Positions 1-16,689 are shown, counted from the stretch's first letter. The stretch is 64,000 nucleotides of DNA from Leptonemataceae bacterium (GCA_965227295.1 OZ245742.1:2208001-2272000); one strand, 5' to 3'. Notes: generated by a model from the letters alone, not told the origin. Numbers and translations are program-made.

Positions 1-2274
1 TTTTGTCGGAGGGTCTGAGAGTTCCCCACTGCTCTGCGGCAGTTCTATTCCCGTTTCCTCTGCCAGCAATGCTGCGCCTTTGAGTGCGTATTCGACCGTC
101 TTGCTGAGAATCCGAAATTGATTTACGTCAAAGAACTCGCTCTGTGCTTCGAAGATGTGATCAAAAATTTTCTGATAGCGAGGCCCGCCCGAGGTCTTGC
201 CTTCCTTTATGATTTTGTAGCGGATGAACGCGGCGACCGGCATCGTAAAGCCGGTGTCCGTTCGGGTTCCTTTTTTACTGGCCTTGACCTCGCGGAACGC
301 AGCCATGAGCGCCTCGTATGTTGCATCTGCCGTGAGGTAACTTCTGGAAAGCAGTTGCGTTTCATTGTTGAATAGATACGCGGTGGTCCGCAATTCGTAA
401 ACGCCGGTCGCGTAATATGTACTCAGTCGCTGGCCGCTTTCGATGGCCAGTTGCTCGGTGTTGCAATCGTAGCTGCCGCTTACAAAATTTCCCAGGCGTT
501 CATCGCCGCCGTCTCCGTGTCCTTTCAAATGACACCATTCCTGGCGCGGCAGTTCGGTCGCGGTGGTTTGCTTGAGGTGTTGCCATTCGCCGCGAACGTC
601 GCCGTTGTTCCGTGCTAACGTCCAGCTCGCCAGGTTGTTCGCGGACAGTGCGTTGTGGGCAATTTTGTTGTCAATGGAGCGGTCCGCGACAAGCGGCGCA
701 ATGTGCCGCATGACGGACCCCGCGTTGATGCGGACCCCACGCGGATGACCAAGATCGGTGCCTTTGTTTTTCAGGGTGGGACCGGCCTGGCTCTTGATTG
801 TCTGAAGATTCTGCTGATTCCGAAAGGTGATCGGCAGGCTGAGTCCCGTGCTCTCATCTCGGATGACCTTGCCGTTTCGAACGGGACTACCGTCCGGCTC
901 TATTCTGATCTTTCGGTAGTAGTTTATGCTGAAGATTTGGAGGATCTCGGAATCCGTAAGCGAGTTGCCGGAATTACCTATTGCGAACGCGGCAAGATTT
1001 TGAAATATTCCCGGCCGGGGCGTATTGGTTAATACGTAAGTGCCGCAGACGTCATCTTGCTCTGTACGGCTTTTGAGAGTAATTGCTTCGTACGTAAAGT
1101 TGGGAGTATCTTTGACTTGTGTATACTCATAAGACCGCCCGTTCACCATCGGAGTTGTGTCTTTGACACTGATCCGGCGCTTCGGATCAAGTCCCAGTAC
1201 TTCGGCAAGTTTTTCAATTGCAGTATCTTCGAGACTGCCCTTATACTCCCAGAGATACCGCCCGGGTGCTACCTTCTGCGCCCGTCCGTATCCGTGCCCG
1301 CCGGAGGAAGTCCACAACAAGTGCGGGATCGGAGTCTTGCGTTGTAGATCCGCGTCTGCCCCCGTAAGATGATCGGGGAAAAGCAGGGAGCCGATTTCGT
1401 AGATCACATGTTTTCCGATACGGCCGGACCACTGCGTACTTTCATGTACGCTATTGAGAAATTGCTTTCCGCTCTTCGTTGAGGGCGGCGCATTCCCAAT
1501 ATGAACCGTCCTGTCGCGAAGGTTGAGGCAGGCATCTTTCGGATTTGAATTCCGTGAGTCGTGCCAACCGCTCCAGTATTCTAATCTCGATTCCTTTTTT
1601 ACCCGGACGGCAGGTATCCGCACAGAAGATGAATGATCGCGTTCTTCAAAATAGAAGGAGGATAACCCTGCGTTTACCCATTCAATCGATGCACCGATCC
1701 TGTAACATGGTCGATAGAATTTTTTCTCCTCTCTGTCGGGTTCAAGGGAGCCCGTCTTTATGGTCCTGTAAGATTCAGACGGATCTTCCGTTGGAATGAC
1801 GCCGGGGGATTCCGCCACTGCTGTAATTCCAAGGTCGTCGAAATTTTCGAAGGCGAATAAATGTACGCCGGCCCATTCAAAGCTGGAAGATATCTGTTCG
1901 GCCCTTAACTTGAGAGGTATTCCTCGAATGATTCGAGCGGTTTCGGCCAGTGTTGCTGCCTGGTCGGTGCTGCCGGCTATGCTGATGAACTGCTCCGAAA
2001 ATAGTTTCTCAAATCCTGCGTGCAAGTTTGAATAATCGATGGCGGCTAAAGCCCTGTAAACGAGTTCATGGCAGGCGCGGGAACTGGTAGCATTTTCTAT
2101 CACTGTGAACCACTGGTAGTAGAAGTCGCGAGCAATTCTGACATTGCCGGTCAATGCGCCGGAAAGGGGCGATGCGATCGCCGACCCGGTACTTTGTGTC
2201 TCCAATTCCCCGAAGTAGTCTTCGTCAAATTCGAAATACGTTCCCAATGTGGCTGCTGTGGTTGAAGTCGGCAT
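1..2274 (-). CDS. Large protein (>758 aa, 3' end outside window) with DNA/RNA non-specific (HNH/beta-beta-alpha-Me) endonuclease-like motif; candidate toxin
   Basis: Not in the ORF track. Manual translation from ATG at 2274 (MPTSTTAATLGTYFEF...) has no stop down to base 1. Motif EWCHLKGHGDGGDERLGNFVSGSYDCNTEQLAIE at 439-540. Starts 27 bp after the upstream stop. Confidence 0.8.
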   Translation of the reverse strand, partial: MPTSTTAATLGTYFEFDEDYFGELETQSTGSAIASPLSGALTGNVRIARDFYYQWFTVIENATSSRACHELVYRALAAIDYSNLHAGFEKLFSEQFISIAGSTDQAATLAETARIIRGIPLKLRAEQISSSFEWAGVHLFAFENFDDLGITAVAESPGVIPTEDPSESYRTIKTGSLEPDREEKKFYRPCYRIGASIEWVNAGLSSFYFEERDHSSSVRIPAVRVKKESRLEYWSGWHDSRNSNPKDACLNLRDRTVHIGNAPPSTKSGKQFLNSVHESTQWSGRIGKHVIYEIGSLLFPDHLTGADADLQRKTPIPHLLWTSSGGHGYGRAQKVAPGRYLWEYKGSLEDTAIEKLAEVLGLDPKRRISVKDTTPMVNGRSYEYTQVKDTPNFTYEAITLKSRTEQDDVCGTYVLTNTPRPGIFQNLAAFAIGNSGNSLTDSEILQIFSINYYRKIRIEPDGSPVRNGKVIRDESTGLSLPITFRNQQNLQTIKSQAGPTLKNKGTDLGHPRGVRINAGSVMRHIAPLVADRSIDNKIAHNALSANNLASWTLARNNGDVRGEWQHLKQTTATELPRQEWCHLKGHGDGGDERLGNFVSGSYDCNTEQLAIESGQRLSTYYATGVYELRTTAYLFNNETQLLSRSYLTADATYEALMAAFREVKASKKGTRTDTGFTMPVAAFIRYKIIKEGKTSGGPRYQKIFDHIFEAQSEFFDVNQFRILSKTVEYALKGAALLAEETGIELPQSSGELSDPPTK

Positions 2275-2301
2275 ACGTGTTCCGTTTATCGCTGGTTGAT
2301 T

Positions 2302-5300
2302 TCAGCATTTAATGATATAGACAATTTCAATCGGAGCCGGGCCTTTTGAAATCGAAGGCCCACTGGAACCAAACGGGTCCAACGGATTGAAGCCGCCGGA
2401 AGAACTGCCGACGTAGGCCAGATGCGCTCCGGGGCTATTTTGACGCGCCGAGAGGTTGTCGCTCCCCATAAGGATTCTCCCGCGCAGGTCCGGAGTCCGT
2501 GCTCCGATGGTATTGATCAGATCCTCACATTCACCTGGCACATAGCTTCCATCACACTTGATCCAGCCCTCCGGAATGGAGCGGCCCGCAAACGCCAGGA
2601 CCGTGCCCGTGGGCATAACATCACCGGCCTTATCCCGATAACGTCCGCGGGCAGCGTGAATGCCGCCTTCGTTGTCCACGCGAAGCCGGCCGCCGGAGTG
2701 TCCTGGTGCATCGACCCGGAATTCACCCTGGCCGGCGAGGCTCAGTGCGACTTCCTCCTCGTTACTTTCGATGCGCACCATGCGATCTACATGCAGGTTT
2801 GCGTTACGAACCTTCACCGGATGACTGGGTTTACCGCGTAAATTGAGGCCCCAGTTTTCCTCGATGCAGACTTCCGCGCGCCCACCGGACTCACCGCTCG
2901 ACAGGAAATCGATGCGGGAGCCGTCGCCGAAGTGACCGCTGTTCGTTGCGTTACGAAGCCCCAATTCGCCGCGAATCATCGTGCTGCCGTTGACGTCGAG
3001 TTTGCGTTCCGGATCGCCTCTGCCGATGCCGACGTTGCCGTCGTTCTTCACAATGAAACGTCCGCCGTGGACGAATGGTGCATCGACGCTCAATTCACCT
3101 TCGCCTGCGAGGCTCAGGATTGCATCGGAGTCGGCCCCGCTACCTTCGATGCGTACCGTGCGCTCAACATGCAGACTCCTGTCCAGATTCAGATCCGCGT
3201 TGCGCACTTTCACCGGGCGGGACTCATCGCCGACGAGATTCAATCCCCAGTTTTCTTCGATGGCAACCCTTGCGCGGTTCGTGTTCTCAATCTTGCCGCT
3301 GCTGAACAAATCAATGCGCGAACCCGTTCCGAGATGACCTTCGGTCCGCGCATTGTCCAGACCTACATCACCGCGGAGAACTGTGTTGCCGATCACGTCG
3401 AGCTTGTGCTGCGGGTCTGCGTTTCCGATGCCGACGTTGCCGTCGTTCTTCACAATGAAACGTCCGCCGTGGACGAATGGTGCATCGACGCTCAATTCAC
3501 CTTCGCCTGCGAGGCTCAGGATTGCATCGGAGTCGGCCCCGCTACCTTCGATGCGTACCGTGCGCTCAACGTGCAGATCCGCGTTGCGCACTTTCACCGG
3601 GCGGGACTCATCGCCGACGAGATTCAATCCCCAGTTTTCTTCGATGGCAACCCTTGCGCGGTTCGTGTTCTCAATCTTGCCGCTGCTGAACAAATCAATG
3701 CGCGAACCCGTTCCGAGATGACCTTCGGTCCGCGCATTGTCCAGACCTACATCACCGCGGAGAACTGTGTTGCCGATCACGTCGAGCTTGTGCTGCGGGT
3801 CTGCGTTTCCGATGCCGACGTTGCCGTCGTTCTTCACAATGAAACGTCCGCCGTGGACGAATGGTGCATCGACGCTCAATTCACCTTCGCCTGCGAGGCT
3901 CAGGATTGCATCGGAGTCGGCCCCGCTACCTTCGATGCGTACCGTGCGCTCAACGTGCAGATCCGCGTTGCGCACTTTCACCGGGCGGGACTCATCGCCG
4001 ACGAGATTCAATCCCCAGTTCTCTTCGATGGCGACCCTTGCGCGGTTCGTGTTCTCAATCTTGCCGCTGCTGAACAAATCAATGCGCGAACCCGTTCCGA
4101 GATGACCTTCGGTCCGCGCATTGTCCAGACCTACATCACCGCGGAGAACCGTGTTTCCGATCACGTCGAGCTTGTGTTGCGGGTCTGCGTTGCCGATGCC
4201 GACGTTGCCGTCGTTCTTTACGACGAATCGTCCGGCGACGACACCCGGCCCATCGACACGGAAGTCGCCGTGGCCGCCGAGACTCAGAACGGGATGGTCT
4301 TCCCCGGCTCCGTGAATGCGGGCCGAGCCATGGAGCAATGCATCGCCGATCACCTCAAGACCGGTTTGTTTCGTTACCGGGACCTGGAACTCCGTATCCC
4401 ATTGATCCCTCAGGTTGCGCACCGTGACGTGCACAAACGCAACGCCGTCTTCGCCGGAGATCGCCATGTTCGAAAATGAAAATCTTCGAAAGGCCAGATC
4501 CCTCGTTTCTCCCGCTGCGGCGAAACCCGTCACGGTAAATACGCGCAACACATCGTCGCCCGCTGAATGATTCGCGACCGCAACATTCAGGTCGTCCGCA
4601 TTCAGTGCGATGGCCTCGACTTCGGCTTGAGTTCCAAAGTTCATGGGGCCGGAAGTTTGGGGGCCGGCACGAAAAGTGAAATCGATTTCCGTGTCGGCTC
4701 CGAAGGTGACCGGCCGATCTCCCAGCCCTTGCAGAAACATCTCCAGCGTATTCGTATGACCGGCGCGATTCCAGAGTACATTGCTGCCGTACACGCCGAA
4801 GTGCAGGGGCGCATAGCCGAGCCCGTGATTCTGGAGAATGTCAAGGTGTGCGGTGCGGCGAAAGCCCAACTGCGGCCCGTCGGCATCCAGGCACAGGTTG
4901 CCGAATGTAACCTCGACCTGGGTACTGCGTGAGCCTGCACCCGGCGCGGCGGTGACACCCCTCAGGCGAAACGCGAGCTGCCAGGCCTGGCCGGCCGCGG
5001 GCGGCGTGATTGTAAGCTCTTTCGAAAACGCGCACGACCAGACCAGGGCTCCGTCCGTCCGACGCTCGATGGGGCCGCGGACCATCACCTCGTTGCCCGG
5101 CAGTGCCGTGCTCAGGCCTTCGCGGATGATCTCGTTCATGCCGGTGCGCAGATCGTCGCGCAAAGTGCCGGGCCGGAAAGCGAGGGCCAGGTTAAAGCCG
5201 CCGGGGCCGTTCGCGGCAAAGAGGCCGCTCGTTTTCGTGCCGACAAAGAGCTTAGCATCGAACGGGAGCAAGCCTGTGATATGCAGATCCTGAACGGCGT

Positions 5301-6381
5301 CGAGGTCGACGCGCTGCCAGCCGTGATCGTCAAGATAGTACAGTCCGCGATCCTGCGTTCCGGCGAAGATCGAATTCCCAAAGATTCCGAGAGTGGAAAC
5401 TAAGATCGAGGAGGGTTCGAGGTCTTGCGGCTCGCCGGCCGCGTCATGCGCGCGAAAGCGGTACAGGCCGTGGCCGCGACCGTTTGTGCCCACGTAGAGG
5501 TCGTCGCCGTAGCCGAGAATGCACGCGACGTTGGGATTCGCCACACCGGCCGCGTCCATCTGACGCCAGGTTCCGTCGATCTTATGAAAGAGGCCGAAAT
5601 CAAACGTACCCAGATACAACACACCGTTGTGTTCGTGCAGGACTGTAGTTTGTTTGGGATCAAACGGCACCGCTTCGACCTCGCCGACACTACCGCCGGC
5701 GGGAAAACGATAGAGTCCGTCACCGCGGCCGTTCGTGCCGACGTAGATGTCGTCGTTATGGCCGAGGATGCACGCGACGTTGGGATTCGCCAGGCCGGCC
5801 GGGTCCATCTGTTGCCAGGCGCCGTCGACCTTGCGAAAGATTCCGTAATCGAAGGTGCCCATGTAAAGCACGTCGTTGTACGCATATAACGCCGTGATCT
5901 GTTTCGGATCGAACGGAACGGCTTCGAGTTCGCCCTGGTCACTGCCGGCAGGAAAACGATAAAGGCCGTCGCCGCGGCCGTTCGTGCCGACGTAGATGTC
6001 GCCGCGATAGTCGATGATGCACGATACGTTGGGATTCGCCAGGCCGGCGGGGTTCATTTGCTGATACGATTCGCCGATTTTGCGATATACGCCGCGGTCA
6101 AAGGTCCCGACATACAGTACGCCGTTGAATGCGTGGAGCGCCGTAACGTCCTGCGGATCGAAGACGATGGACTGCGGTTCCGCGGCCGCCAGGACCGCCT
6201 TCCAGGTGTAGGTGTTCCGGTCCGTTTGCGTAAGCCGGACCTCGATCTGTTGTTCCGGCGCGGCCGCGTCGATCTGGTTCACGATGTAGAGGACCGGGAC
6301 CTGGTCGTCGAACTGATTGCGGATGTCCACTGCGAGGGGGAACGCGGTGTGAAAATTTTCGGTGTTTGTGAGATGATTCAT
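2302..6381 (-). CDS. Tail-fibre-like protein: N-terminal domain with inserted beta-propeller, 128-aa repeats, C-terminal phage tail collar domain
   Basis: 1359 aa. Blade repeats (LYVGT/IYVGTNGRG), GNVGIGxxxPxxKLDVxG fibre-type repeats, collar motif MPTGTVLAFAG..PEGWIKCDG..TPDLRGR..YIIKC. Confidence 0.8.
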   Translation of the reverse strand: MNHLTNTENFHTAFPLAVDIRNQFDDQVPVLYIVNQIDAAAPEQQIEVRLTQTDRNTYTWKAVLAAAEPQSIVFDPQDVTALHAFNGVLYVGTFDRGVYRKIGESYQQMNPAGLANPNVSCIIDYRGDIYVGTNGRGDGLYRFPAGSDQGELEAVPFDPKQITALYAYNDVLYMGTFDYGIFRKVDGAWQQMDPAGLANPNVACILGHNDDIYVGTNGRGDGLYRFPAGGSVGEVEAVPFDPKQTTVLHEHNGVLYLGTFDFGLFHKIDGTWRQMDAAGVANPNVACILGYGDDLYVGTNGRGHGLYRFRAHDAAGEPQDLEPSSILVSTLGIFGNSIFAGTQDRGLYYLDDHGWQRVDLDAVQDLHITGLLPFDAKLFVGTKTSGLFAANGPGGFNLALAFRPGTLRDDLRTGMNEIIREGLSTALPGNEVMVRGPIERRTDGALVWSCAFSKELTITPPAAGQAWQLAFRLRGVTAAPGAGSRSTQVEVTFGNLCLDADGPQLGFRRTAHLDILQNHGLGYAPLHFGVYGSNVLWNRAGHTNTLEMFLQGLGDRPVTFGADTEIDFTFRAGPQTSGPMNFGTQAEVEAIALNADDLNVAVANHSAGDDVLRVFTVTGFAAAGETRDLAFRRFSFSNMAISGEDGVAFVHVTVRNLRDQWDTEFQVPVTKQTGLEVIGDALLHGSARIHGAGEDHPVLSLGGHGDFRVDGPGVVAGRFVVKNDGNVGIGNADPQHKLDVIGNTVLRGDVGLDNARTEGHLGTGSRIDLFSSGKIENTNRARVAIEENWGLNLVGDESRPVKVRNADLHVERTVRIEGSGADSDAILSLAGEGELSVDAPFVHGGRFIVKNDGNVGIGNADPQHKLDVIGNTVLRGDVGLDNARTEGHLGTGSRIDLFSSGKIENTNRARVAIEENWGLNLVGDESRPVKVRNADLHVERTVRIEGSGADSDAILSLAGEGELSVDAPFVHGGRFIVKNDGNVGIGNADPQHKLDVIGNTVLRGDVGLDNARTEGHLGTGSRIDLFSSGKIENTNRARVAIEENWGLNLVGDESRPVKVRNADLNLDRSLHVERTVRIEGSGADSDAILSLAGEGELSVDAPFVHGGRFIVKNDGNVGIGRGDPERKLDVNGSTMIRGELGLRNATNSGHFGDGSRIDFLSSGESGGRAEVCIEENWGLNLRGKPSHPVKVRNANLHVDRMVRIESNEEEVALSLAGQGEFRVDAPGHSGGRLRVDNEGGIHAARGRYRDKAGDVMPTGTVLAFAGRSIPEGWIKCDGSYVPGECEDLINTIGARTPDLRGRILMGSDNLSARQNSPGAHLAYVGSSSGGFNPLDPFGSSGPSISKGPAPIEIVYIIKC
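3023..4218. repeat. Three near-identical in-frame tandem repeats (402, 384, 384 bp)
   Basis: ccgatgccgacgttgccgtcgttctt recurs at 3023, 3425, 3809 and 4193. The 3023 unit carries an 18-bp insertion (3175-3192, NLDRSL). Confidence 0.97.
5215..6165. repeat. Diverged 249-bp (83-aa, two-blade) beta-propeller repeats
   Basis: gttgggattcgcc at 5530, 5779 and 6028, encoding ANPNV(S/A)CI three times, plus a degenerate fourth unit. Confidence 0.9.
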
Positions 6382-6406
6382 GGAGTATGCCTTAGCTTAC
6401 TGTGAC

Positions 6407-8470
6407 TTAGTATTTGATAATGTAGACGAGGGCGTAGTACGGCGGCCGGTTCTCGTGGGGCTGATTGCCGCCGGTATCCGTGGTTCCGTAGAGGCGATTA
6501 TCGTCGTCGGTATCGCCGGAGCCGCGGTAGTTGCTGCCTTGTGTGCCGAATGGCCAACCATCGAAGGCCTCGCCCCAGCCATAGTGTTTATGCGAAGGCA
6601 TTTCGGATTCCGTTAGCGTTACCTGCGCTGCGCCGCCCGTCGCATTTCTGTGATAGCTTCTCCCCGCACCGACGACAAAACGATCCCGCAAATCGGGGGT
6701 ATGCGCTCCGACAATGCTCTTAAGCTCCGCGTACTTCACATCTCCAAGCCGGGTCCCGTCGCATAGCACCCAGCCTTCCGGAGCCCGGTCGCCGCCGTAC
6801 GCGATGATGCTGCCGACGGGCATCACGTAGCCGGATTTGTCAAAGACGCGGCCTTCCAGAACCCTAAGATCCGTTTCGCGAATCTTTACAGGACGTTCGT
6901 CAGTGCCGTATAAGTTCAGTCCGAAGTTTTCTTCAATAGAGGTGTAGACCTGCCCGTGCTTGTCTTTCCCTGTTAGAAAATCGATGCGCGAACCCGTTTC
7001 CAGTCGACCCTGATTCGATCTTCCCAGGGCCAACTCTTTGTTGATCGTTACTGTATTGTGGAAGGTCGTATTGCCGGAGACCTCCAGGGCGTTCTTCAGC
7101 TTCGCGTCGGATCCGACGGTCAGATTTCCGTCCAGTAATGTATCACCATCGACGGTTAGCCTTTTGTCGCCGTCGGCTTGCCGGCCGTCCGCGGGCAAGT
7201 CGCAACCGATCTGCACCTGACCTTCGGGGATCAGCAGGTCCGTGTTGCGAACCTTAACGGGATGTGTGGAATCCCCGCGGAGGTTCATGCCCCAGGCCTC
7301 TTCGATGGTGAGAACCGGTCGGTCCGAATCGCTAAGTCCCGCGCTCAAAAAGTCGATGCGAGAACAGTGGCCGTAATGACCTTCTGCTTTCGCCGGGCCC
7401 AGGCGCAGTTCACCCGTCAGCGTAGACGTCTCTTTGATTACGGGAATATGAAACTCGCTGTCCCAGTAGCCGGGAATGTTGCGTACTTGAACAGCGAGCA
7501 TCACGACGCCGTTTTCACCGGAGATCTGCACGTTCGAGAAGGGAAACAGAAGTTCGGTGAGGCTCTCGGATTCCTGAAAACCGGAAACGATGAACGCTAA
7601 GGTTCCGGCGTTATCATCTACGGGGCCTCGCACCAAATAACGGCGGCCTGCCGGACTCCCGTCGTCCATGTTCAACTGGTAGCCCCGGACTTCGGCGGAC
7701 TTTCCGAAGTGCATGCGCTTCGATGCGCTGGAAGCGTAGCGAAACGCGAGGACAATCTCCGTATGTTCGTTGAATCGGATCGGGACCCGTCCCTGTGTTT
7801 CGAAGTACGGCGTCAGTCGATTGTGCTCGCCCTGGCGATTCAAGAGTACGTTGCGGCCGTGGATGCCGAAAAAGAGCGGCGCGTAGCTGTGGCCGCGATG
7901 ATTGATGATGTCCATAGGCACGATGCGATTGAAGCCGAGGGCCGTCCCGGCAGCGTCCGCGTGGAGATTGCCGAAACCAAATTCGATCTGTGTACCGCGC
8001 GAACCGGCGCCCGGCTCGGCGGATACGCCTGCGAGTGTGAAGACGAAACTCCAGGGCGTCTCGCCGGACGCCGCTACATCGATATCGTTTGCGAACGAGC
8101 AGTAATACACGCGAACGCCGTCACTGGTGCGTTCCGCTGCCGTAACAGCGCATGGGCCCGCGCCGGTTTGACTTAAGGCGTTTCGGAGAATCGTCGCGAA
8201 GTTGTCCGCGACACTCTTGCGTAACGTGCCGGGTCGAAACGCCATCGCCAGATTGAAGTTCGATGCATCGGGCGCGTCACCGGCGGCCCTCCAGGTGTAC
8301 TTGCGTTCATCCGCACTCGTAATGCGAATCGTAAGGTTTTGCTCCGGCCCGGCGCTGTCGGGTGTGTCGACGATGTAGAGGATGGGCAGATCCTTCCCCT
8401 GAAACTGATTCTGGATTGCGACGTCGAACGGGTACACCGTACGAAAGCTGTGAATACTGGCGGTCATCAT
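6407..8470 (-). CDS. Tail-fibre-like protein with C-terminal phage tail collar domain; paralog of 2302-6381
   Basis: Likely ATG at 8470 with GGAGA RBS (track starts at 8524). MPVGSIIAYGG..APEGWVLCDG..TPDLRDRFVVGAG..HENRPPYYALVYIIKY. Shares FNLAxAFRPGTLR, APGAGSRxTQ and YAPLxFG with the paralog. Confidence 0.85.
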   Translation of the reverse strand: MMTASIHSFRTVYPFDVAIQNQFQGKDLPILYIVDTPDSAGPEQNLTIRITSADERKYTWRAAGDAPDASNFNLAMAFRPGTLRKSVADNFATILRNALSQTGAGPCAVTAAERTSDGVRVYYCSFANDIDVAASGETPWSFVFTLAGVSAEPGAGSRGTQIEFGFGNLHADAAGTALGFNRIVPMDIINHRGHSYAPLFFGIHGRNVLLNRQGEHNRLTPYFETQGRVPIRFNEHTEIVLAFRYASSASKRMHFGKSAEVRGYQLNMDDGSPAGRRYLVRGPVDDNAGTLAFIVSGFQESESLTELLFPFSNVQISGENGVVMLAVQVRNIPGYWDSEFHIPVIKETSTLTGELRLGPAKAEGHYGHCSRIDFLSAGLSDSDRPVLTIEEAWGMNLRGDSTHPVKVRNTDLLIPEGQVQIGCDLPADGRQADGDKRLTVDGDTLLDGNLTVGSDAKLKNALEVSGNTTFHNTVTINKELALGRSNQGRLETGSRIDFLTGKDKHGQVYTSIEENFGLNLYGTDERPVKIRETDLRVLEGRVFDKSGYVMPVGSIIAYGGDRAPEGWVLCDGTRLGDVKYAELKSIVGAHTPDLRDRFVVGAGRSYHRNATGGAAQVTLTESEMPSHKHYGWGEAFDGWPFGTQGSNYRGSGDTDDDNRLYGTTDTGGNQPHENRPPYYALVYIIKY

Positions 8471-8493
8471 GTTCTCCCGGGTCCGGTCGGTGA

Positions 8494-11400
8494 CTACTGC
8501 CGATCTTGTGTCAGTAACAACCATCCGCCGACAAGTTCTGATTCCAGGTGGTTGTGTTCCTTTTCGTCGTCCGTGCGCAGGTCTCGCACGCCGTACCGCG
8601 GATCAAACCATTGCCAGCGAAAACCGGAAACCGCCGGCGTGTTCAGAACCAGGGGGCCGGGGGCCACGGCATTCGGGAGCGGTGCCGGTTGTAACAACGG
8701 CGTCGTTCGGAACCACAGTCCGAACTTTCGCAAGACGGGCAGATAGTGCGAGGCCGGAATCGAAATAACCTTCGTCGGCAATAAACCGGTGGTCGCGTGT
8801 ACGACACCACGCGGGTCCACCAGCATCGTTACGTTCAGAGGTGCGTCATCCGGAGAGCGCCACCGGGTCTGATGACCGGTGGCATCGATGCGCGGATCCT
8901 CTCCGGCGATAGCGCTCGTTTCCGGCGCGAAGAAGGGATCGCCGAGTCCGCCGTAGGCGTCTTCGATCCAGTAACCGACCAGTCCGTCGTTCAGTTGCGC
9001 GTGTTCACCGAGACGAATCGGAAACTTCACGGCGGTCCAGTTCCTGCGATAGCGCTTTGCGTACGTCCAGGGCGCGCCGGCATCGCAATTGTGTAAATCT
9101 GCGAGCAGTGCCGGCCAGCTCTGATCCATGGCGGGCAGGCCGCAGAGTTCGAAGGAGATCGTCGCCCGGACCACGGCCATGGGGCGACCCATGAGAATCC
9201 ATTTCGTATCGAAGAGATGGGCGTTCGTCGGGGCGATGTGTTCGAGGGCGTTCTGGGTTGCGGACAGGAAGGCCTCTAAGAATGTTTTGCTGCCTGTTAA
9301 GCGTGAGACCGTGTTGAAGAGATACGGATTCGTGATGTCGCCGGCCAGGTCGGGCGCTCTCTCCGACCAGGGCGGCGTATCCCAGGTGCCGTCCGCCTTG
9401 ATCGAACCCAGAGCGGTGCCCGCGGCGGAGAAAACGGCGACGCTGTTGTCGAGGTAGTCCGCCATCAACCAGCCGCACACGGGCGACGTATCCGGATGAT
9501 CATTCGTGGTGTGGAAGTCGACGTGGTCCGCGTATTCGTCGACGTCCGCGGACACGGGATGTGCCGATAGCCATCGAAAGTTCAGGCGCGCGGGTTGGGA
9601 GAGACGCGGAGGGAGAAACGGTTTATCACGCTTGCTTCCGTCGCGCAGGGTTTCCGCGGCCACCAGTCCGGTGACGGTCGGGTCGATGTCGTGGATCAAT
9701 CCGAAGTTATCGATCAATCTCAGTCGATTCAGCTTCAGCCCGCCGCTCCGAATCGGATTAAAGTCGAATGCCGGAAGCGGCGAGGAATCGCGTCGGTTCG
9801 CGACGAGTTCCCTGACCTGCCCGGTGAACGCTTTCGCCGCGGCAAAGCCGATGGGTTCTTCGACGGGCAGTTGTGCAACTTTCTTTAGCATGATGCAGGC
9901 GTGATGAAAACCGTTCAGGGTTTGCGACACGACATGCATTTCATCGAGTTTCTGGTACGCGAGGCGTGCGGTTTCCAGGGGGTTGCGGGTCGGATCGGCC
10001 TCCCAGAGGACGTCGGGATGGAGAAGCGCGGGAACATCTTCGGACCGCGCCCGCAAGAAATCGTCGATGCCGTGATGATCCGTAAACTTTATGTGATCTT
10101 TCTTCAGGGAGATTTCGATCAACGAACGGATGTGTCGACGCAGGGATTGCCGCGCATGGGAACTCATGATCACCGATCCGGAAAAGACCGACAGCCGTCC
10201 GGCGACGTATTCGGGCCGTTGTTCGAAATCCGGGCCACGCTCGGCTAATGCGACGTTACGCTTCAGTCCGTCCGGTTCAAAGGCTCCGCCGGCGTGCCGC
10301 AGGTCCGTATCAACGAGGTCCATCTCCCAATCGAGAAGAAACGGATTCCAGGCCTGCTGCGAGAGTTGAGATGGCTGAATCCGGTGACGGACTTTCTCTC
10401 GCAGATCCGCGATATCGGCGGGCACGGGATCCGCCTCGCCGACAAAGGCTATGATGGGACATGTTAAATACTGATCACCCGGCGGGCCGTCTGATTCTGC
10501 GTTCGCCGGGTCCAGACCTGCAATCATCAAGACCGGTGCCCGCGGTTCCCAGTAGCGCGGGCCGTCGATCATGGTGAGCGCGAGGAAACTTGATGCCTTG
10601 TGGTGGCGGCGTCGCTCATTTTCGAGGGATATTAGATCAGAAACTCTCTGCCAGGCATTCAGGACCGCGTTCGCTCGATCGGCTTTGCCTGTTTTATCGA
10701 TCCGCGGGCGAAAGTTGTTCGTTTCATCGTATCCGTTAATGATACCGGTGGATTCGATCGTCGCTTCCAGTTCGGCGAAGGAATGCGTTTCGATAAAATA
10801 CTGAATATGATCGGCGTCGGGAAAAACACCGCGGCCTTCGATACCAGGATAGCGGGCGTGCATGTATCGATACCAGTCCGCATAGAGCTGATGTCGCAGG
10901 GTGATCAGTTTCCGCTCGCTTCGGTCAAACATCATCTGCGCCATGTTCAGGCTTTGTAACGGGCCGGCCAGTTCCGACGGCAGCTCCGGTTGATCTGCTG
11001 CGGGAGCGTCGATATGATCCGGGTGGTGCGTCGTGATCTTCCACAGTTGGCCGGCCGTTACGGCCCGAAAGCCCTGTCGGTGTCTCGCCTCGTGAAATTT
11101 TGGCCCGACATCGATCGTGTGATGCTCCAGTCCGGAGTGCAGTAGTATTGACTCGAGTTGGCTTTCGAACAGGTTCTTATGTGTAGAACGCTCCGGTTTT
11201 CCGTTGCTCATTTTGTCGGCAAGCAACGCCGAGAGTGCTTCCGTGCCGGTATTCCCGACGGAGACCTGGAGCTTCGATCTTTCCGTTGGCGGAGAGGCGT
11301 CGGCCTGGATCTCGCCGAAGAACAGAGTTCTGAACTTCCGGAGCGGCCAGGGCTCGGCGTCCGGAACTTCCAACTGCAACTTAAAGAGGTTGCGGAGTTT

Positions 11401-12138
11401 ACCGTTAAGTTTTTCCCGCGACATGCTGGTGTCGGAGGAAGTGAGTTCAGGGATAATCGTGCGGAGCAGGTCATCTTCCTGCTCGGAATTCCAGCCAATC
11501 ACCGAATATTTGAGATCATCACCTGCCTGGCCTTCCGGGTCGTAAAAACCAAAAACGCCGGCGCAATTCGGATAGAACGAAGAAAAGTTAATACCACCGT
11601 AACCCAATACGGTGAGGGGTTTGCCGTTGTTAAGTTTCTTGAAGCTATCGCCGGGTTGCGTGCCAGGATGACCGTATGCAGTTTTGCGACCCATGTACCT
11701 GTACGGCCGTTGCTTTGCCCCCGCGTGCGGAATGACACAGACCGGCTCGTCCGGGTCCACCTCTTCGGCGTGGACGAAGTCGCTTTCAATCAGCCATTGT
11801 TGTTCGGCCAGGCCACCGCCGTTGCGCGCTACCAGCCATCTGTTCGGAGCCGCCGGATACGTACCGGGATGCGTTTGCAAATTGTTCGGGCCCGGTCTCC
11901 CGAGAAAGTGAGGAACGATGAAGTGCAAGTGCATACCCGGATGGAGTGGGAAGCCGGGATTCGCAAACGGGGCATGCACGATTCCGCGGCTGACAAAAGG
12001 CTGCTCGAAGAAAAAGTCCGTGGACGAATCGCTCCAGGGGAGGCGCGAGTAATCTCCGAGGGGCGGCGCGGCCTGCCGCAGAGTCTTTAAGCAGAGTCCT
12101 TCGATTCGAAGGGGAACAATAATCCTGGATTCTTGCAT
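8494..12138 (-). CDS. Large uncharacterised protein (HLH..PNRWLV..ESD..YPNCxxVFGFxD motif string)
   Basis: 1214-aa ORF, first gene of a tightly spaced minus-strand operon; no signal peptide or TM segment evident. Confidence 0.85.
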   Translation of the reverse strand: MQESRIIVPLRIEGLCLKTLRQAAPPLGDYSRLPWSDSSTDFFFEQPFVSRGIVHAPFANPGFPLHPGMHLHFIVPHFLGRPGPNNLQTHPGTYPAAPNRWLVARNGGGLAEQQWLIESDFVHAEEVDPDEPVCVIPHAGAKQRPYRYMGRKTAYGHPGTQPGDSFKKLNNGKPLTVLGYGGINFSSFYPNCAGVFGFYDPEGQAGDDLKYSVIGWNSEQEDDLLRTIIPELTSSDTSMSREKLNGKLRNLFKLQLEVPDAEPWPLRKFRTLFFGEIQADASPPTERSKLQVSVGNTGTEALSALLADKMSNGKPERSTHKNLFESQLESILLHSGLEHHTIDVGPKFHEARHRQGFRAVTAGQLWKITTHHPDHIDAPAADQPELPSELAGPLQSLNMAQMMFDRSERKLITLRHQLYADWYRYMHARYPGIEGRGVFPDADHIQYFIETHSFAELEATIESTGIINGYDETNNFRPRIDKTGKADRANAVLNAWQRVSDLISLENERRRHHKASSFLALTMIDGPRYWEPRAPVLMIAGLDPANAESDGPPGDQYLTCPIIAFVGEADPVPADIADLREKVRHRIQPSQLSQQAWNPFLLDWEMDLVDTDLRHAGGAFEPDGLKRNVALAERGPDFEQRPEYVAGRLSVFSGSVIMSSHARQSLRRHIRSLIEISLKKDHIKFTDHHGIDDFLRARSEDVPALLHPDVLWEADPTRNPLETARLAYQKLDEMHVVSQTLNGFHHACIMLKKVAQLPVEEPIGFAAAKAFTGQVRELVANRRDSSPLPAFDFNPIRSGGLKLNRLRLIDNFGLIHDIDPTVTGLVAAETLRDGSKRDKPFLPPRLSQPARLNFRWLSAHPVSADVDEYADHVDFHTTNDHPDTSPVCGWLMADYLDNSVAVFSAAGTALGSIKADGTWDTPPWSERAPDLAGDITNPYLFNTVSRLTGSKTFLEAFLSATQNALEHIAPTNAHLFDTKWILMGRPMAVVRATISFELCGLPAMDQSWPALLADLHNCDAGAPWTYAKRYRRNWTAVKFPIRLGEHAQLNDGLVGYWIEDAYGGLGDPFFAPETSAIAGEDPRIDATGHQTRWRSPDDAPLNVTMLVDPRGVVHATTGLLPTKVISIPASHYLPVLRKFGLWFRTTPLLQPAPLPNAVAPGPLVLNTPAVSGFRWQWFDPRYGVRDLRTDDEKEHNHLESELVGGWLLLTQDRQ

Positions 12139-12337
12139 GCGGCCGCCCGGGTTTCAAACCTGCTAATATGTTTCTATGTGAAATTAGCCCGAGCGCAATT
12201 ATTTTCTAACGTTGAGAGTCTGAAATTGAGTGATTATCGGGCGGCTGCTTCAGTATCATCCGGGGTTTCGCGGCGGGTGTAACTCAGGACAGCGGCGACG
12301 GCCATGCCCGTGTTCGTACGAGTCTTCGTCCGGGCAC

Positions 12338-12370
12338 AAAAAACCCCGGGCTGTATGAGCAACCCGGGGC
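12338..12370 (-). terminator. Rho-independent terminator of glnA
   Basis: Minus strand gccccgggttg-ctcata-cagcccgggg followed by a T run, about 45 bp after the glnA stop. Confidence 0.85.
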
Positions 12371-12413
12371 TTCTCGACGGCCGCTAACTCACGGCATCGT
12401 GTGTTTGTAAAGA

Positions 12414-13853
12414 TCAGCAGTCGTAGTAGAGGACGAACTCATACGGGTGCGGCCGCATGTTGTTCATTTCCACGTACTCGCCCATCTTGTAGTCGGCATA
12501 GGCTTCGAGCATGTCTTTCGTGAAGACGTTGCCCTGCGACAGAAAGTCGTTGTCTTTGCCGAGTTCTTCGAGAACCTCTTTGAGAGACGTCGGTACCTGC
12601 TTGATGTTCGCCATCTGCTCTTCGGAGGCTTCGTAGAGATCGAAGTCGGCCGGGGGACCCGGATCGATCTTCTTTTGTACGCCGTCCAGGCCGGCCATGA
12701 TCATGGCGGCGAAGGCGAGGTACGAACAAGACGAAGCGTCCGCCGTGCGGAATTCGATGCGGCGTGCTTTGTCGCTGTTGACCGCGATCGGGATCCGAAT
12801 GGAAGCCGAACGGTTCCGTGCGGAGTACACCAGGGTTACCGGTGCTTCGAAGCCCGGGACCAGACGTTTGTAGGAGTTCGTGGTCGGGTTCGAGAACGCC
12901 AGCACGGACGCACCGTGTTCCAGGATGCCGCCGATGTAGTTCATGGCGAGTTCGGACATGTTCGCGTAGCCGCTGCCGGCGAAGAGGTTCTTGCCGTCTT
13001 TCCAGAGTGACTGGTGCGTGTGCATACCGGTGCCGTTGTCATTGTAAACGGGTTTCGGCATGAAGGTTACGCTGTAGCCGTACTTCTTCGCGACGTTCTT
13101 CAGAACGTACTTGTACTTGATCATGTTGTCGGCCATCGTCAACGCGTCGGCCACAACCAGGTTGATCTCGCCCTGACCGGCGGAAGCCACCTCGTGGTGA
13201 TGCTTCTCGACCTTCACGCCGACGGTTTCGAGGATCGAAAGTACTTCCGAACGCAGATCCTGGTAGAGATCGTTCGGCGGGGTCGGGAAGTAACCGCCCT
13301 TCGGACGCATCTTGTGGCCGAGGTTCTGGCCGTTGCCGTCGATGCCTTCGGTGCCCATGTTCCAGGACGCGTCGGTGGCATCTACATAGTAGAAACCGTG
13401 CTGCATTTCGCTGGAGAAGCGCACGTCGCGGAAGATGAAGAATTCCGCTTCCGGTCCGAGAAACGCGGTGTCCGCGATGCCGGTGCTTTTCATGTACTCG
13501 AGGCAACGCTTGAGGATCGTGCGCGGGTCACGATCGTAGGCTTCGCCGGTAATCGGATCGTAAATGTCCGAGAAACAGACGAGGGTTTTCTTTTCGAAGA
13601 ACGGATCGATGAACGCGCCGACGGTGTCGAGACGGTTCAACATGTCCGACTCCTGGATGCCTTTCCATCCCCGTACCGAAGAACCGTCGAATCCGAGACC
13701 GAACGTAAAACAATCTTCGTCGATCTGGCTCAGCGGCATGGTGTAGTGATGGGTCAGGCCGAACTGATCGGTGAACCGGATGTCGACGTACTCGACTTTT
13801 TCAGACTCGGCCCACTTCAATAATTCCTTGGGGTCCTGCGGTAATTGGGACAT
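12414..13853 (-). CDS. glnA: Glutamine synthetase type I
   Basis: FDGSSVRGW, HHHEVA, TFMPKP..DNGTGMHTHQS, NSYKRLVPGFEAP, RNRSASIRIP, RIEFR; DLYE adenylylation-type Tyr. Confidence 0.98.
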   Translation of the reverse strand: MSQLPQDPKELLKWAESEKVEYVDIRFTDQFGLTHHYTMPLSQIDEDCFTFGLGFDGSSVRGWKGIQESDMLNRLDTVGAFIDPFFEKKTLVCFSDIYDPITGEAYDRDPRTILKRCLEYMKSTGIADTAFLGPEAEFFIFRDVRFSSEMQHGFYYVDATDASWNMGTEGIDGNGQNLGHKMRPKGGYFPTPPNDLYQDLRSEVLSILETVGVKVEKHHHEVASAGQGEINLVVADALTMADNMIKYKYVLKNVAKKYGYSVTFMPKPVYNDNGTGMHTHQSLWKDGKNLFAGSGYANMSELAMNYIGGILEHGASVLAFSNPTTNSYKRLVPGFEAPVTLVYSARNRSASIRIPIAVNSDKARRIEFRTADASSCSYLAFAAMIMAGLDGVQKKIDPGPPADFDLYEASEEQMANIKQVPTSLKEVLEELGKDNDFLSQGNVFTKDMLEAYADYKMGEYVEMNNMRPHPYEFVLYYDC

Positions 13854-13898
13854 AATCTAACTGACTCCTTCCTGAGGGTATATTTGCTCATTGTGCGG

Positions 13899-13914
13899 TG
13901 CAACTTTCGTACCG
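13899..13914 (-). promoter_or_regulatory. Sigma54 (-24/-12) promoter of glnA
   Basis: Minus strand CGGTACGAAAGTTGCA = GG-N10-GC, close to TGGCACG-N4-TTGCA, 45 bp upstream of the ATG. Confidence 0.75.
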
Positions 13915-14231
13915 GCCAAAAAATGGGCAAATTCCGGAAAAATCTGCGAGTGCGCTGCTTGAATGTGTGCATGCTGCCTTTTGAGTGATCAATTTGCCCC
14001 TTGGATATGCGGATTGTTGCTTTTCAGGCTGTCCATTGTGACTGGACGTCGTTCAGCGCTCGCTCAATCACTGCAAAAACCACGTATTATCCACGGAAAA
14101 ATGTGAATAGGCACGGATTTTTGTATTGAGTCGCGTCCAGGGCCCGTGATTCGCCAAAAAAATGGCTTCCGCTATGAAGCCCGGTACGTAACTTGAACTT
14201 GATGAACCCGGGCCTCTATAGCTCCGGTCAG

Positions 14232-15806
14232 ATGATGCGAATCTTCTCCAAATCCTCAGGCCGCCGCCAAGCGCGATGGCGCCTTTTGTTTTCGCTCGTG
14301 CCTGCTCTATTTTTTGCGCAGTGCCTGGCCTTCAGCCAGGCCACGACGGACCTTTCGCGGGTGGAGAATCAGGTTCTGCTGTTCAGCCTTCTGAGTTCGC
14401 CGGCCTTTACCAGTTCGAACGGTGAAGGCAGTACTACGGACGATGACGAAAGCGAAGAAACGACCATGCCCCCCGCTCCGATCTGTCCGGATACCTCCGC
14501 GCTGGCCTCCGGAACGTATCTCTTTCTCGATATCAATCCGGGCGCGACGGGCGGCGAGCCGCAGGATTTGATTTGCATGGGCGGCGCCATCTACTTCAAC
14601 GCCGACGACGGCACGAGTGGCCGGGAACTCTGGCGTTCCGACGGTACCGTGGCCGGGACTGCCATGCTGACCGACCTGAATCCCGGTGCCGGCGACGGCA
14701 TTTTGGCGAACCGCGATTTCGTAACCCTTGGCGGCATGCTCTATTTCGAGGGCAATGATAGCATCACCGGTCGGGAGCTGTATCGATCCGACGGTACCGC
14801 CGGGGGCACGCTCAACGTCGCCGATCTGAATGCCGGGGCTGGCAACGGGCAGGCGGGCGCCCTGGTGGTGCTTCAAAACAGGCTCTGGTTCCAGTGTAAT
14901 ACCGGCGCGACCGGCCTCGAACCCTGCGTCTCGGACGGGACCATGGCCGGCACCCTGCAGATCGTGGATCTCAATCCCGGTGCCGGCAATAGCTTCTTCA
15001 CGCGCCGGGCCGCGGTGGGCAGCACGCAGGTGGTCTTTCAAGGAACCGACGGTACTAATGGTAACGAACTTTATGTTACCGACGGCACCGGGGGCGGCAC
15101 GAGCCTCGTCGCCGATATCCAGGCCGGCGCGGCGAGCGGGAATCCGGACCAGTTCGCGAGTCTCGGCACGAGCGCCCTCTTCACCGCGGACGACGGCACC
15201 AATGGTACGGAAGTCTGGATTACGGACGGCACCGGTGGCGGCACCATGCTCCTGGCCGATATCGATGCAGGGGCCGGTGGTGCCGCCTCGGACCTGGCTG
15301 CTGCCGGTGGCTTCGTCTACTTTCGCCAGAATACCGCCGCCGGAAACGAGCTCTGTCGATCCGACGGCACGCCGGGCGGCACCGCGCTCTTCGCGGACCT
15401 CGATGCCGGCGCCGGCAGCTTTCCTCAGGGCTTCACCGAGTCCGGCAGTTTCGTCTACTTTCAGGCGGACGGCGCGACGAACGGTGTCGAGCCCTGGGTT
15501 ACCGACGGTACTGTGCCCGGTTCTATCGAACTGGCTGACATCAACACTGCCGGCAACAGCGATCCGCAGTTCTTCGTAGCGGCCGGTGGCGGAAGCGCGT
15601 TCTTCATCGCCAGCGATCCGGCCTCCGTGGGGCGAGAACTCTATCAGAGCGACGGCACTCCCGGGGGGACGGCCCTTGTGTTCGACACGAATACCGGGAC
15701 GGCGAACGGCGTGGACCCGGAGACGATGCTCTGGACCGGCAGTGTGCTCTTTTTCGCCGCGGACGACGGTGCGAACGGTGTCGAACTCTGGGTGCACGTG
15801 CCGTAA
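14232..15806 (+). CDS. ELWxxDGT repeat (beta-propeller) protein, probable lipoprotein
   Basis: Repeated G(R/N)EL(W/Y)xSDGT motifs; hydrophobic stretch ending FFAQC; start uncertain. Confidence 0.88.
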   Translation: MMRIFSKSSGRRQARWRLLFSLVPALFFAQCLAFSQATTDLSRVENQVLLFSLLSSPAFTSSNGEGSTTDDDESEETTMPPAPICPDTSALASGTYLFLDINPGATGGEPQDLICMGGAIYFNADDGTSGRELWRSDGTVAGTAMLTDLNPGAGDGILANRDFVTLGGMLYFEGNDSITGRELYRSDGTAGGTLNVADLNAGAGNGQAGALVVLQNRLWFQCNTGATGLEPCVSDGTMAGTLQIVDLNPGAGNSFFTRRAAVGSTQVVFQGTDGTNGNELYVTDGTGGGTSLVADIQAGAASGNPDQFASLGTSALFTADDGTNGTEVWITDGTGGGTMLLADIDAGAGGAASDLAAAGGFVYFRQNTAAGNELCRSDGTPGGTALFADLDAGAGSFPQGFTESGSFVYFQADGATNGVEPWVTDGTVPGSIELADINTAGNSDPQFFVAAGGGSAFFIASDPASVGRELYQSDGTPGGTALVFDTNTGTANGVDPETMLWTGSVLFFAADDGANGVELWVHVP

Positions 15807-15858
15807 ACAAGCCCGGGCCGAAAACTCAAGTTCCTTTTGCTTCGTCCGATCATACAAC

Positions 15859-16689
15859 ATGCGTCGCCTGATCTTTCCGCTCATCCTTGCTGTCGTCATT
15901 GCCGTTCTGCTCAGCGGATCGTTTCTGTTTGCCCAGCCGCAACTGGATCACAAGTTCCTGCCCCAGGGAGTATTGAATTACTCCAGTGACGGCGGCTCGC
16001 ACTTTTTGTGGGACAACGGCCGGGAGCGGTCGAGCTTCATGCTCAAGATGGTTTCGGAGCTGATTACGCCGGCGCCGGATTACTGCATCGATCGTCTGCA
16101 CAAGGAACTGGAGCGGGAGACGTCCTTCGTGCCGCGCTCCGAAAAGCGGGACGCGGTTGCTAATCGTAACTCACCGTACTTTATGAGCGGCGAGCATCTG
16201 CGGCTGACCCAGGGCGGTCAGGTTACGAACCCGGCGAACCCGACGGGCGAAGAAGGCGATCCCTGCGAGCATGCCCTGGCCTCGTGCGGGAACTGCCATC
16301 TGCCGCGGAAAAACAACTGCAACTACGAGATCACATACGGAGACGCGGCGAATCCGAAGACGGTCTTCGCCCAGGTCGTCGCGGACGGGGCGCAGGGCAT
16401 CACGGTCAAAGGTTTGAGCAATGCCGGAACGACGGTTAACATCAAACGAGATGAGATTTACAAGACCGTGTGGATCAACGGCGCCGATCCCCTGGTCACC
16501 TGGTGGAACTTTCAATCGTTTACACGACGCGGCGAACAGGCGCAGAAGATGATGAAGATCGCCCACGAAAACGACGTGGCCTGCACGAACTGCCATCTTC
16601 GCCACGGCGACTTCCGGCTGACTCCCGAGGGCGAGGCCTTCGCGAAAGACGGCACGGTGATTCGCAAAATTCCTTTGAGTGATTTTTGA
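15859..16689 (+). CDS. Exported putative diheme cytochrome c
   Basis: Signal peptide MRRLIFPLILAVV..FA; two CxxCH motifs (CGNCH, CTNCH). ATG at 15859 is in frame with the track ORF. Confidence 0.72.
   Translation: MRRLIFPLILAVVIAVLLSGSFLFAQPQLDHKFLPQGVLNYSSDGGSHFLWDNGRERSSFMLKMVSELITPAPDYCIDRLHKELERETSFVPRSEKRDAVANRNSPYFMSGEHLRLTQGGQVTNPANPTGEEGDPCEHALASCGNCHLPRKNNCNYEITYGDAANPKTVFAQVVADGAQGITVKGLSNAGTTVNIKRDEIYKTVWINGADPLVTWWNFQSFTRRGEQAQKMMKIAHENDVACTNCHLRHGDFRLTPEGEAFAKDGTVIRKIPLSDF

Follow-up and report, generated by a model that had tools for sequence, protein, structure and literature searches.

Results

A seven-gene operon behind glnA

We analyzed a stretch of 64,000 nucleotides (nt), here called the window, from the single-contig 5.94-Mb genome of a Leptonemataceae bacterium (GCA_965227295.1, OZ245742.1:2208001-2272000; G000:C1:2208001-2272000 in our numbering). 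At its left edge lies an operon with the genes g1 to g7, encoding three large core proteins (g1, g5, g6), two fibre-like arm proteins (g2, g3), a slot enzyme (g4) and a further protein, g7. A prediction made earlier from the window alone, hereafter the original prediction, had described positions 1..12138 as a four-gene operon for a giant unknown protein, two tail-collar fibres and a nuclease, with no phage or contractile genes nearby, and had interpreted it as a fibre-targeted toxin complex with the 1214-residue protein as hub. The features are listed below, in window coordinates unless marked L001 or L002.

12414..13853, minus strand: glnA, glutamine synthetase type I (TIGR00653, E 1.3e-181; Pfam Gln-synt_C/N), a separate transcription unit upstream
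~12337..12370, minus strand: intrinsic terminator of glnA, read from the sequence, with an 8-base-pair GC stem, a 12-nt loop and a T-run
8494..12138, minus strand: g1, core protein of 1214 amino acids (aa), an open reading frame (ORF) without Pfam, NCBIfam, PHROG or PADLOC family
6407..8470, minus strand: g2, arm/fibre 1, 687 aa from the ATG at 8470 or 705 aa from an alternative ATG at 8524
2302..6381, minus strand: g3, arm/fibre 2, 1359 aa, paralogue of g2
1..2274, open at the window edge (whole gene L002:968-3274), minus strand: g4, slot enzyme, ORF of 768 aa
L001:12957-18029, minus strand: g5, 1690 aa, DUF6603; its 5' end lies at window 1..29 if the start codon is GTG
L001:10956-12953, minus strand: g6, 665 or 659 aa, left of the window
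L001:10057-10959, minus strand: g7, 300 aa, left of the window
~L001:9807-10040, minus strand: relic of a g4-family C-terminus, ~70 aa, directly after g7 in another frame

The four genes inside the window are co-oriented, and with the g2 start at ATG 8470 the gaps g1-g2, g2-g3 and g3-g4 measure 23, 25 and 27 nt. Coordinates and the hairpin behind glnA agree with the original prediction; a terminator consensus scan did not list this hairpin because its 12-nt loop exceeds the limit of the scan. The number of genes had to be corrected, as g5, g6 and g7 follow left of the window and the operon reaches 8 kb beyond the window's left edge. g4 ends 32 nt outside, i.e., its last ten codons and the stop are missing from the window. 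The start of g5 overlaps the g4 stop or lies 1 nt past it, g6 begins 3 or 21 nt after g5, and g7 overlaps g6 by 4 nt. The gene after g7, which encodes an Lcl_C lipoprotein-like protein, has its own near-consensus promoter-like site. Since g5 to g7 are coupled or overlapping and the next gene has a promoter-like site of its own, we hence describe the operon as seven genes, g1 to g7. A sigma-70 consensus scan found promoters no more often than in shuffled sequence (5 found, 6.2 expected).

A crude Kyte-Doolittle scan detected no signal-peptide-like or transmembrane stretch in any operon protein, in agreement with the earlier statement that signal peptides are absent. g5 alone has Kyte-Doolittle windows above 1.6, three in number and all internal. 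The GC content is 52.5% in g4 and 50.5% in g7; the remaining five genes have 58-61% and the whole genome has 59.8%, so that g4 and g7 are compositional outliers within the operon.

The operon belongs to a widespread cassette

We searched for g1 relatives with one genome per species and obtained ten loci, i.e., six from Streptomyces, one each from metagenome-assembled genomes (MAGs) of Cytophagales, Anaerolineae and Saprospiraceae, and one from Symploca. All ten carry at least one other core gene. In eight of them g5 lies within 10 kb downstream of g1, and g6 is visible in seven of these eight; the eighth (Cytophagales) ends inside g5, and its g6 was found in the extended stretch. The Symploca contig of 4.4 kb has g6 just upstream of g1, and the Saprospiraceae genome has g5-g6 on a different contig from g1. 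Overall the genes run g1, arm, variable gene, g5, g6, or in this sequence cyclically permuted. Relatives of the operon genes therefore do co-occur in other genomes, a point that the original prediction had made decisive for itself.

The same genome contains a second cassette at 5.29 Mb with the order g6'-g1'-arm-MBL-g5', flanked by a MoxR-type AAA gene and rho, and 27-32% identical to the first. Its genes lie on L024 (G000:C1:5286001-5306000) as follows.

3962-5755: g6'
5752-9546: g1'
9749-11728: arm
11772-13337: MBL-fold protein
13346-17896: g5'

Cassettes are also carried by three large plasmids, one of Paenibacillus polymyxa and two of Streptomyces, with a DUF6603 protein (849-1093 aa), a g6-like and a g1-like protein and one or two further genes; RefSeq labels these copies 'DUF6603 domain-containing protein' or 'hypothetical protein'. 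The plasmid records number ten in total. In the phylum of the host, g6 and DUF6603 occur in the same 6 of 401 sampled genomes. DUF6603 was present in 6 of 301 genomes in each of two further phyla and in none of 14 control genomes. This corresponds to ~2% of sampled species in three phyla, with up to four copies per genome. One genome of the phylum to which the Streptomyces loci belong, G411 (3.9 Mb), has four separate DUF6603 genes on four contigs.

Comparison of these loci shows the core gene order in at least six phyla as well as on plasmids, and because synteny is conserved across phyla the grouping of the genes is more than chance. Many unrelated repeat proteins (FG-GAP, DUF5122 propeller, Lcl_C) are encoded nearby, and one could hence suppose that large secreted or repeat proteins without a common function became co-oriented by chance behind glnA. 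Since different phyla, plasmids and the second cassette of this genome all keep the gene order, and since the junctions measure 1-27 nt or overlap, this seems to us very improbable.

An exchangeable enzyme slot co-varies with the N-terminal half of g5

Between the arm gene and g5 the cassettes have a position, here called the slot, whose protein varies. It is occupied by g4 in the present operon, by an MBL-fold protein in cassette 2 and in all six Streptomyces loci, and in the Cytophagales MAG by an 831-aa protein with an ADP-ribosyltransferase-type match below cut-off. The Paenibacillus plasmid cassette encodes a PLD-like protein. Pairwise BLAST of three slot proteins showed no similarity among them.

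An alignment-based scan of metagenomes for the g4 family gave 23 loci. Fourteen have g5 directly downstream, usually then g6, with g1 upstream. Among the other nine, six have less than 1 kb of downstream DNA and three (L042, L043, L045) are without core genes. Moreover, in relatives with the same gene order, g5-g6-g1 is preceded by one g4-family gene or by two in tandem. From the g5-adjacent metagenome loci and these relatives we conclude that the g4 family belongs to the cassette. The tandem arrangement is seen in L064 (G392:C5:2305001-2325000), where two g4-family genes of 817 and 837 aa precede g5-g6-g1; L063 has one.

The two halves of g5 behave differently in alignments. The DUF6603 half is about equally distant from all loci, at 27-33% identity. 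In the N-terminal half, g5 of cassette 2 aligns from residue 55 or earlier to its end with all six MBL-type Streptomyces proteins, as against other loci, where the alignment starts only at residues 238-810. Likewise, residues 25-730 of cassette-1 g5 align only with the five loci that have the closest g4 relatives and with three partial contigs; they gave no alignment with the MBL-type or the remaining types. The DUF6603 proteins of the plasmid cassettes are 600-840 aa shorter. By alignment, the N-terminal half of g5 thus changes with the type of slot enzyme, and this co-variation is consistent with an enzyme-specific holder function of that half.

g4 is a probable His-Me-finger nuclease

A word-based search with g4 found only g4 itself; a full HMMER search found 217 relatives, mostly of ~1000 aa and matched at g4 residues ~310-760. 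When 25 relatives were scanned against Pfam, 24 had no family. In 35 family members the invariant residues are, in g4 numbering, W580, C581, H582, N596, G600, S601, C604, N605, E607, Q608, L609 and E612. We compared this core with ten Endonuclease_NS_2 domains (PF13930) from genomes of the host's own phylum. The g4 motif H582, G589-G590, N596 and N605 has offsets of 0, +7/+8, +14 and +23, identical to those of all ten domains. hhalign placed the motifs of the g4 family and the ten domains in register, with a weak E of 0.13 over 28 columns. The language-model neighbours of g4 480-768 were led by PF13930 clusters at 0.92, 0.91 and 0.90, and 19 of 30 neighbours were of PF13930 type; weak PF13930 matches were also found in 2 of 35 g4 relatives (best E 0.011). 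An HNH profile was matched neither by g4 (Pfam, E<=10) nor among the 19 families matched by 35 relatives (E<=5). We therefore consider g4 a probable His-Me-finger nuclease, with its predicted core at residues ~578-612. By the profile searches it is not a Pfam HNH member. From the earlier nuclease assignment, a His-Me-finger-like core remains, with no Pfam HNH match and in a protein that is N-terminally truncated compared with its family.

Full-length relatives of g4 have 1040-1120 aa. In one of them, P0055, residues 5-229 match g7 4-214 and residues 321-1042 match g4 56-735. Because P0055 covers both regions, g4 lacks the N-terminal domain of its family, i.e., the first ~265-320 aa. g7 is matched by 14 g4-family relatives (best ~1e-14). 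The ~70-aa fragment past g7 is 46% identical to g4 672-736 and fits the C-terminal consensus of the family; the fragment's stop and the -35 hexamer in the promoter-like site of the Lcl_C gene overlap. As g7 and the fragment match the N- and C-terminal parts of the family, they are the remains of a second, internally deleted g4-family copy. The cargo arm of the present cassette may hence be impaired or split.

In the 2507-aa protein P0075, a relative of the g4 core is joined to two Macro domains and a ubiquitin C-terminal hydrolase (UCH) domain. The g4 core is therefore also carried outside DUF6603 cassettes.

g2 and g3 are phage-fibre-like arms of a family with diverse ends

Both arm proteins have a tail collar domain (PF07484) near the C-terminus, at 33.9 bits in g2 and 27.8 bits in g3, above the gathering cut-off of 24 bits. 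g2 matches 19 PHROG families, 15 of them in the tail category (best phrog_1800, 5e-22), and g3 has a PHROG tail collar fibre match at 4.3e-11. The PHROG matches are confined to the fibre parts, with the 'tail collar fiber' match over the last ~140 aa. g2 and g3 are 36% identical over 477 aa (E 1e-65). The base domain of g2 aligned with arms of nine further loci. We aligned g2 and g3 with arm genes from eight other loci (alignment A4). The arms consist of a common base domain of ~340 aa, stalk units that open with an NVGIGT-like motif, and diverse ends. Across loci these ends are a tail collar, a LamG_3 lectin with collar, or Peptidase_S74, the intramolecular chaperone of phage fibres; a propeller is a further exchangeable module. 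The earlier description of g2 and g3 as two tail-collar fibres is thus borne out, with a common base domain added to it.

The g2 stalk is short; that of g3 is long and built from repeats, and ~60 residues into its base domain g3 has an inserted beta-propeller (Reg_prop, 23 bits). Two tandem repeats were recorded in g3 without strand assignment.

3190..4234: stalk repeat of 384 bp (128-aa modules), 2.7 copies with 98% matches, Tandem Repeats Finder score 2020
5454..6162: propeller-blade repeat of 249 bp, diverged, 2.4-2.8 copies with 75-78% matches

The 98% identity of the stalk units points to a recent change in the length of the g3 stalk. Arm genes adjoin g1, on either side, in every locus where they could be placed, and the arm base domain is specific to the DUF6603 cassette. 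A hidden Markov model (HMM) of the arm domain found no arm gene in seven of eight metagenome loci scanned; the sole match was a sequence used to build the HMM.

Such arms might also serve adhesion, i.e., the cassette might form a surface-bound or released apparatus that holds and handles prey, substrate or kin, with enzymes that process the bound material and no toxin delivery. With their swappable tips, S74 among them, the arms look like mosaic trimeric fibres, and the Bdellovibrio mosaic adhesive trimer (MAT) fibres are surface adhesins (PMC10769870). Also, several host groups glide, form filaments or are associated with surfaces (Cytophagales, Saprospiraceae, Streptomyces and filamentous cyanobacteria). 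We nevertheless regard this as rather improbable, since the proteins have no anchor, signal peptide or transmembrane segment, since nuclease, MBL and PLD types suit damage more than substrate use, and since three giant core proteins would be left without a role.

The core proteins g1, g5 and g6

g5 matches DUF6603 (PF20248) at residues 1038-1532 with E 3.6e-115 and 385.8 bits (cut-off 27). g1, g4 and g6 had no Pfam match even at E<=10, and g1, g4, g5, g6 and g7 had no PHROG match. PADLOC-DB v2.0.0, a library dating from 2023, gave zero families for each of the seven operon proteins at E<=0.01. g1 has at least 611 relatives at E<=1e-10; among the 120 listed, none has a functional name and two have a Pfam domain. 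In the literature searched, no paper contained DUF6603, PF20248 or IPR046538.

We modelled g1 (residues 1-1199, 63-sequence alignment) with AlphaFold 2 (AF2) and obtained a mean predicted local distance difference test (pLDDT) score of 87.4 and a predicted template modelling (pTM) score of 0.87. With Foldseek the model had no match in the Protein Data Bank (PDB) at E<=0.001 (best E 0.11). VIA-align reached at best Z 5.3 for a generic helical hairpin, and none reached Z 5.4. This fits the earlier wording 'giant unknown protein', and the fold comparison that had been suggested there brought no fold identity. For g6 (pLDDT 77.7) the best Foldseek match to the PDB had E 0.036, the best match in BFVD had 5.1e-3 at a template modelling score of 0.09, and a VIA-wide search gave at best Z 5.6, with similarity only to generic Ig-like domains. 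Sequence profiles of g1, g6 and the g4 family compared with PDB sequences yielded nothing below E 0.18. We conclude that g1, g5 and g6 are a core of three large proteins, with no known fold for g1 and g6.

Two further candidates were dropped. A domain shared by g6 and g1 was rejected, as the profile-profile comparison covered 16 columns at a probability of 3.5. The glycine-rich, hydrophobic and conserved g5 residues 1165-1183 were considered as a membrane-insertion element and would equally fit a buried strand.

Pfam families of phages or contractile systems (sheath, tube, baseplate, spike) were found neither in the seven operon proteins, nor in the 10 ORFs of the left 18 kb, nor in the 39 ORFs of window 13.9-64 kb. 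The absence of such genes from the window, as originally described, is thereby confirmed, and the leftward extension that had been proposed as a check revealed no prophage or extracellular contractile injection system (eCIS) module. g1 occurs in none of 50,697 phage records, and a pattern scan of IMG/VR with the g1 alignment gave nine stretches, none of which was confirmed.

These searches also bear on an origin of the cassette from a virus-like or compartment-forming element, of which it would be a relic or domesticated structural module with the core as a novel-fold shell, fibres attached to it and the enzyme as packaged cargo. The fibres are clearly of phage type, the core models are confident (g1 pLDDT 87.4) and have no known fold, and the N-terminal half of g5 goes with the type of cargo, as would be expected of a part that loads it. 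Against this, no replication, packaging, integrase or capsid-like gene accompanies the cassette in any locus examined, and 50,697 phage genomes contained no match, nor did IMG/VR give a confirmed one; such an origin hence appears improbable.

Flanking regions

On the left the operon is followed by a run of repeat-protein genes, and other large ORFs lie farther right in the window.

L001:845-9770: DUF5122 beta-propeller, MRJP/NHL propeller, FG-GAP repeats and Lcl_C (two domain copies), with an MgtC gene among them; probably surface or secreted proteins
14193-15806, plus strand: 537-aa ORF with many short repeats 'G..G.ELW..DGT.(A/G)GT', no Pfam match at E<=1e-5
14307-15899, minus strand: 530-aa ORF antisense to the 537-aa repeat gene, probably a shadow
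46467-51253, minus strand: two adjacent 7TMR-DISM sensors, one with SpoIIE phosphatase and TPR, the other with PAS and HATPase_c_2
58555-62898, minus strand: 1447-aa ORF, no Pfam match at E<=1e-5
62895-63959, minus strand: 354-aa ORF overlapping the preceding one, no Pfam match at E<=1e-5

Discussion

A proposed function of the cassette

From the gene content we tentatively favour a leaderless, non-contractile complex that is armed with fibres and exposes other cells to an enzyme effector; we hold this to be a serious possibility that falls somewhat short of probable. The cassette proteins would come together in the cytoplasm and build a large particle that does not contract. The arms would form trimeric fibres and bind surface glycans of another cell, and the slot enzyme would act as effector. 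The N-terminal half of g5 that matches this enzyme would hold it, which would explain why no immunity gene is needed. In the present operon the effector would be the probable His-Me-finger nuclease. The particle would be released and then reach the target cell. That the arms are phage-type, presumably trimeric fibres with lectin and collar tips argues for action on the outside of another cell, and that the enzyme is swappable argues for an effector role.

In its broader form the proposal is a new class of nanomachine. Three giant proteins of no known fold would build a leaderless, non-contractile particle with phage-type fibres and a swappable enzyme kept inactive by the N-terminal half of g5. 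This particle would be an independent analogue of tailocins, Tc toxins and umbrella particles and would have spread horizontally over at least six phyla. We consider this extended version a serious possibility as well, slightly less likely than the simple complex. The fibre-targeted toxin complex of the original prediction is in part retained here, as fibres plus an exchangeable enzyme slot make the picture reasonable; neither an immunity gene nor an export route was found for it, and for the 1214-aa protein as its hub there was no support.

Several observations weigh against the proposed complex. Neither within the operon nor next to it is there an export signal or a gene for secretion or lysis. 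An immunity gene after g4 is absent, the g4-g5 junction being 1 nt or overlapping with no small ORF between. The fold searches with the g1 and g6 models hint at no pore, translocon or cage. The nuclease assignment of g4 lies below formal thresholds (no Pfam match; hhalign E 0.13 over 28 columns) and, judged by its full-length relatives, g4 is truncated. That the N-terminal half of g5 varies together with the slot could come from adjacency in recombination instead of binding. Finally, a search of four plasmid loci with the arm-domain HMM yielded no arm gene; three of them are cassettes, and the fourth, on the Paenibacillus sonchi plasmid, has g6-g1 without g5.

The missing signal, lysis and immunity genes are the main gap of the favoured reading and keep an intracellular role alive. 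In such a conflict or anti-phage system the core would be a sensor scaffold, the arms would recognise phage parts or altered cell components, and the slot enzyme would be a triggered suicide or anti-phage effector. All proteins being leaderless and no immunity gene following the nuclease would suit this well. Effector swapping, seen here with nuclease, MBL and PLD types, is typical of defence systems. The distribution is also patchy at ~2% with multiple copies per genome, and plasmid copies lie beside transposases, a Fic toxin, helicases and a CHAT protein. On the other hand, none of the seven proteins matches PADLOC-DB, and no ATPase, helicase or nucleotide-signalling domain was found in any component with Pfam. 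Moreover, the arm tips (LamG lectin, tail collar, S74 chaperone) are of the kinds that bind surface glycans from outside. Intracellular defence is therefore unlikely in our view, though it is the rival that we take most seriously.

If the fibre-armed complex is real, it would represent an unrecognised way for bacteria to act on other cells, with more than 5,000 residues of protein of no known fold, and a fourth architecture for aimed protein delivery beside contractile tails, Tc toxins and umbrella particles. Its modular design of exchangeable fibres and exchangeable enzymes would offer a programmable scaffold. A Pfam DUF and the g1 family with at least 611 proteins would obtain a function. 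Carriers make up ~2% of the species sampled in three phyla; Streptomyces, filamentous cyanobacteria and Bacteroidota are among them. Should the cassette serve defence or adhesion instead, its three core proteins would still be a large set with confident models and no structural match.

Comparison with known systems

The arms resemble the fibres of phage tails, tailocins and eCIS in having a tail collar, stalk repeats and, in relatives, an S74 chaperone. The fibres of multi-receptor phages follow the same logic, in which tips are exchanged on a conserved N-terminal part. In contrast to these systems, no sheath, tube, baseplate, spike, capsid or terminase gene lies near the cassette, and the core proteins are absent from 50,697 phage genomes.

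By sequence g5 is a clear member of the DUF6603 family (PF20248), whose plasmid homologues have companions in the same order; since the family has no assigned function, membership names g5 but explains nothing. g4 shares the spacing of its core H, GG, N and N with Endonuclease_NS_2 nucleases (PF13930; e.g., Ntox4-linked clusters), but its core sits in a cassette-specific family of ~1050 aa with N- and C-terminal regions of its own. From polymorphic toxin-immunity modules g4 differs in having no immunity gene directly downstream.

Tc (ABC) toxins are giant leaderless proteins whose variable enzyme is harmless in or on its carrier, so that no immunity protein is needed, and their receptor-binding domains lie outside. 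RHS/YD, VRP1 and TcA-type families were matched by none of the components in Pfam, and no Tc chain rose above background in the fold searches with g1 and g6.

As far as the available excerpt on Bdellovibrio MAT fibres extends, these are predator-surface adhesins for glycans on other bacteria (PMC10769870). Like the arms, they exemplify a bacterial, non-phage use of phage-like trimeric fibres with mosaic tips and some S74 chaperones; unlike the cassette, they are surface-displayed and, in that excerpt, not described with a DUF6603-type giant core or an enzyme slot (PMC10769870).

The umbrella (Umb) particles of Streptomyces consist, according to the consulted part of their description, of UmbC (an ALF-repeat toxin), UmbB and UmbA, which has a trypsin-like domain and a lectin (PMC11062931). 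They are secreted, and immunity genes lie directly downstream of the toxins (PMC11062931). Several lectin-tipped spokes with diversified tips surround one polymorphic toxin, and glycan binding picks the target; several particle types with differing toxin and lectin sets occur per genome (PMC11062931). In Pfam no operon protein matched a trypsin-like family. Measured against this partial account, the cassette differs in that its enzyme is a separate gene and not the C-terminus of a scaffold, and in having no immunity gene and no secretion signal. What the two would have in common is a multi-protein set that combines varied lectin-type tips with one exchangeable toxin or enzyme.

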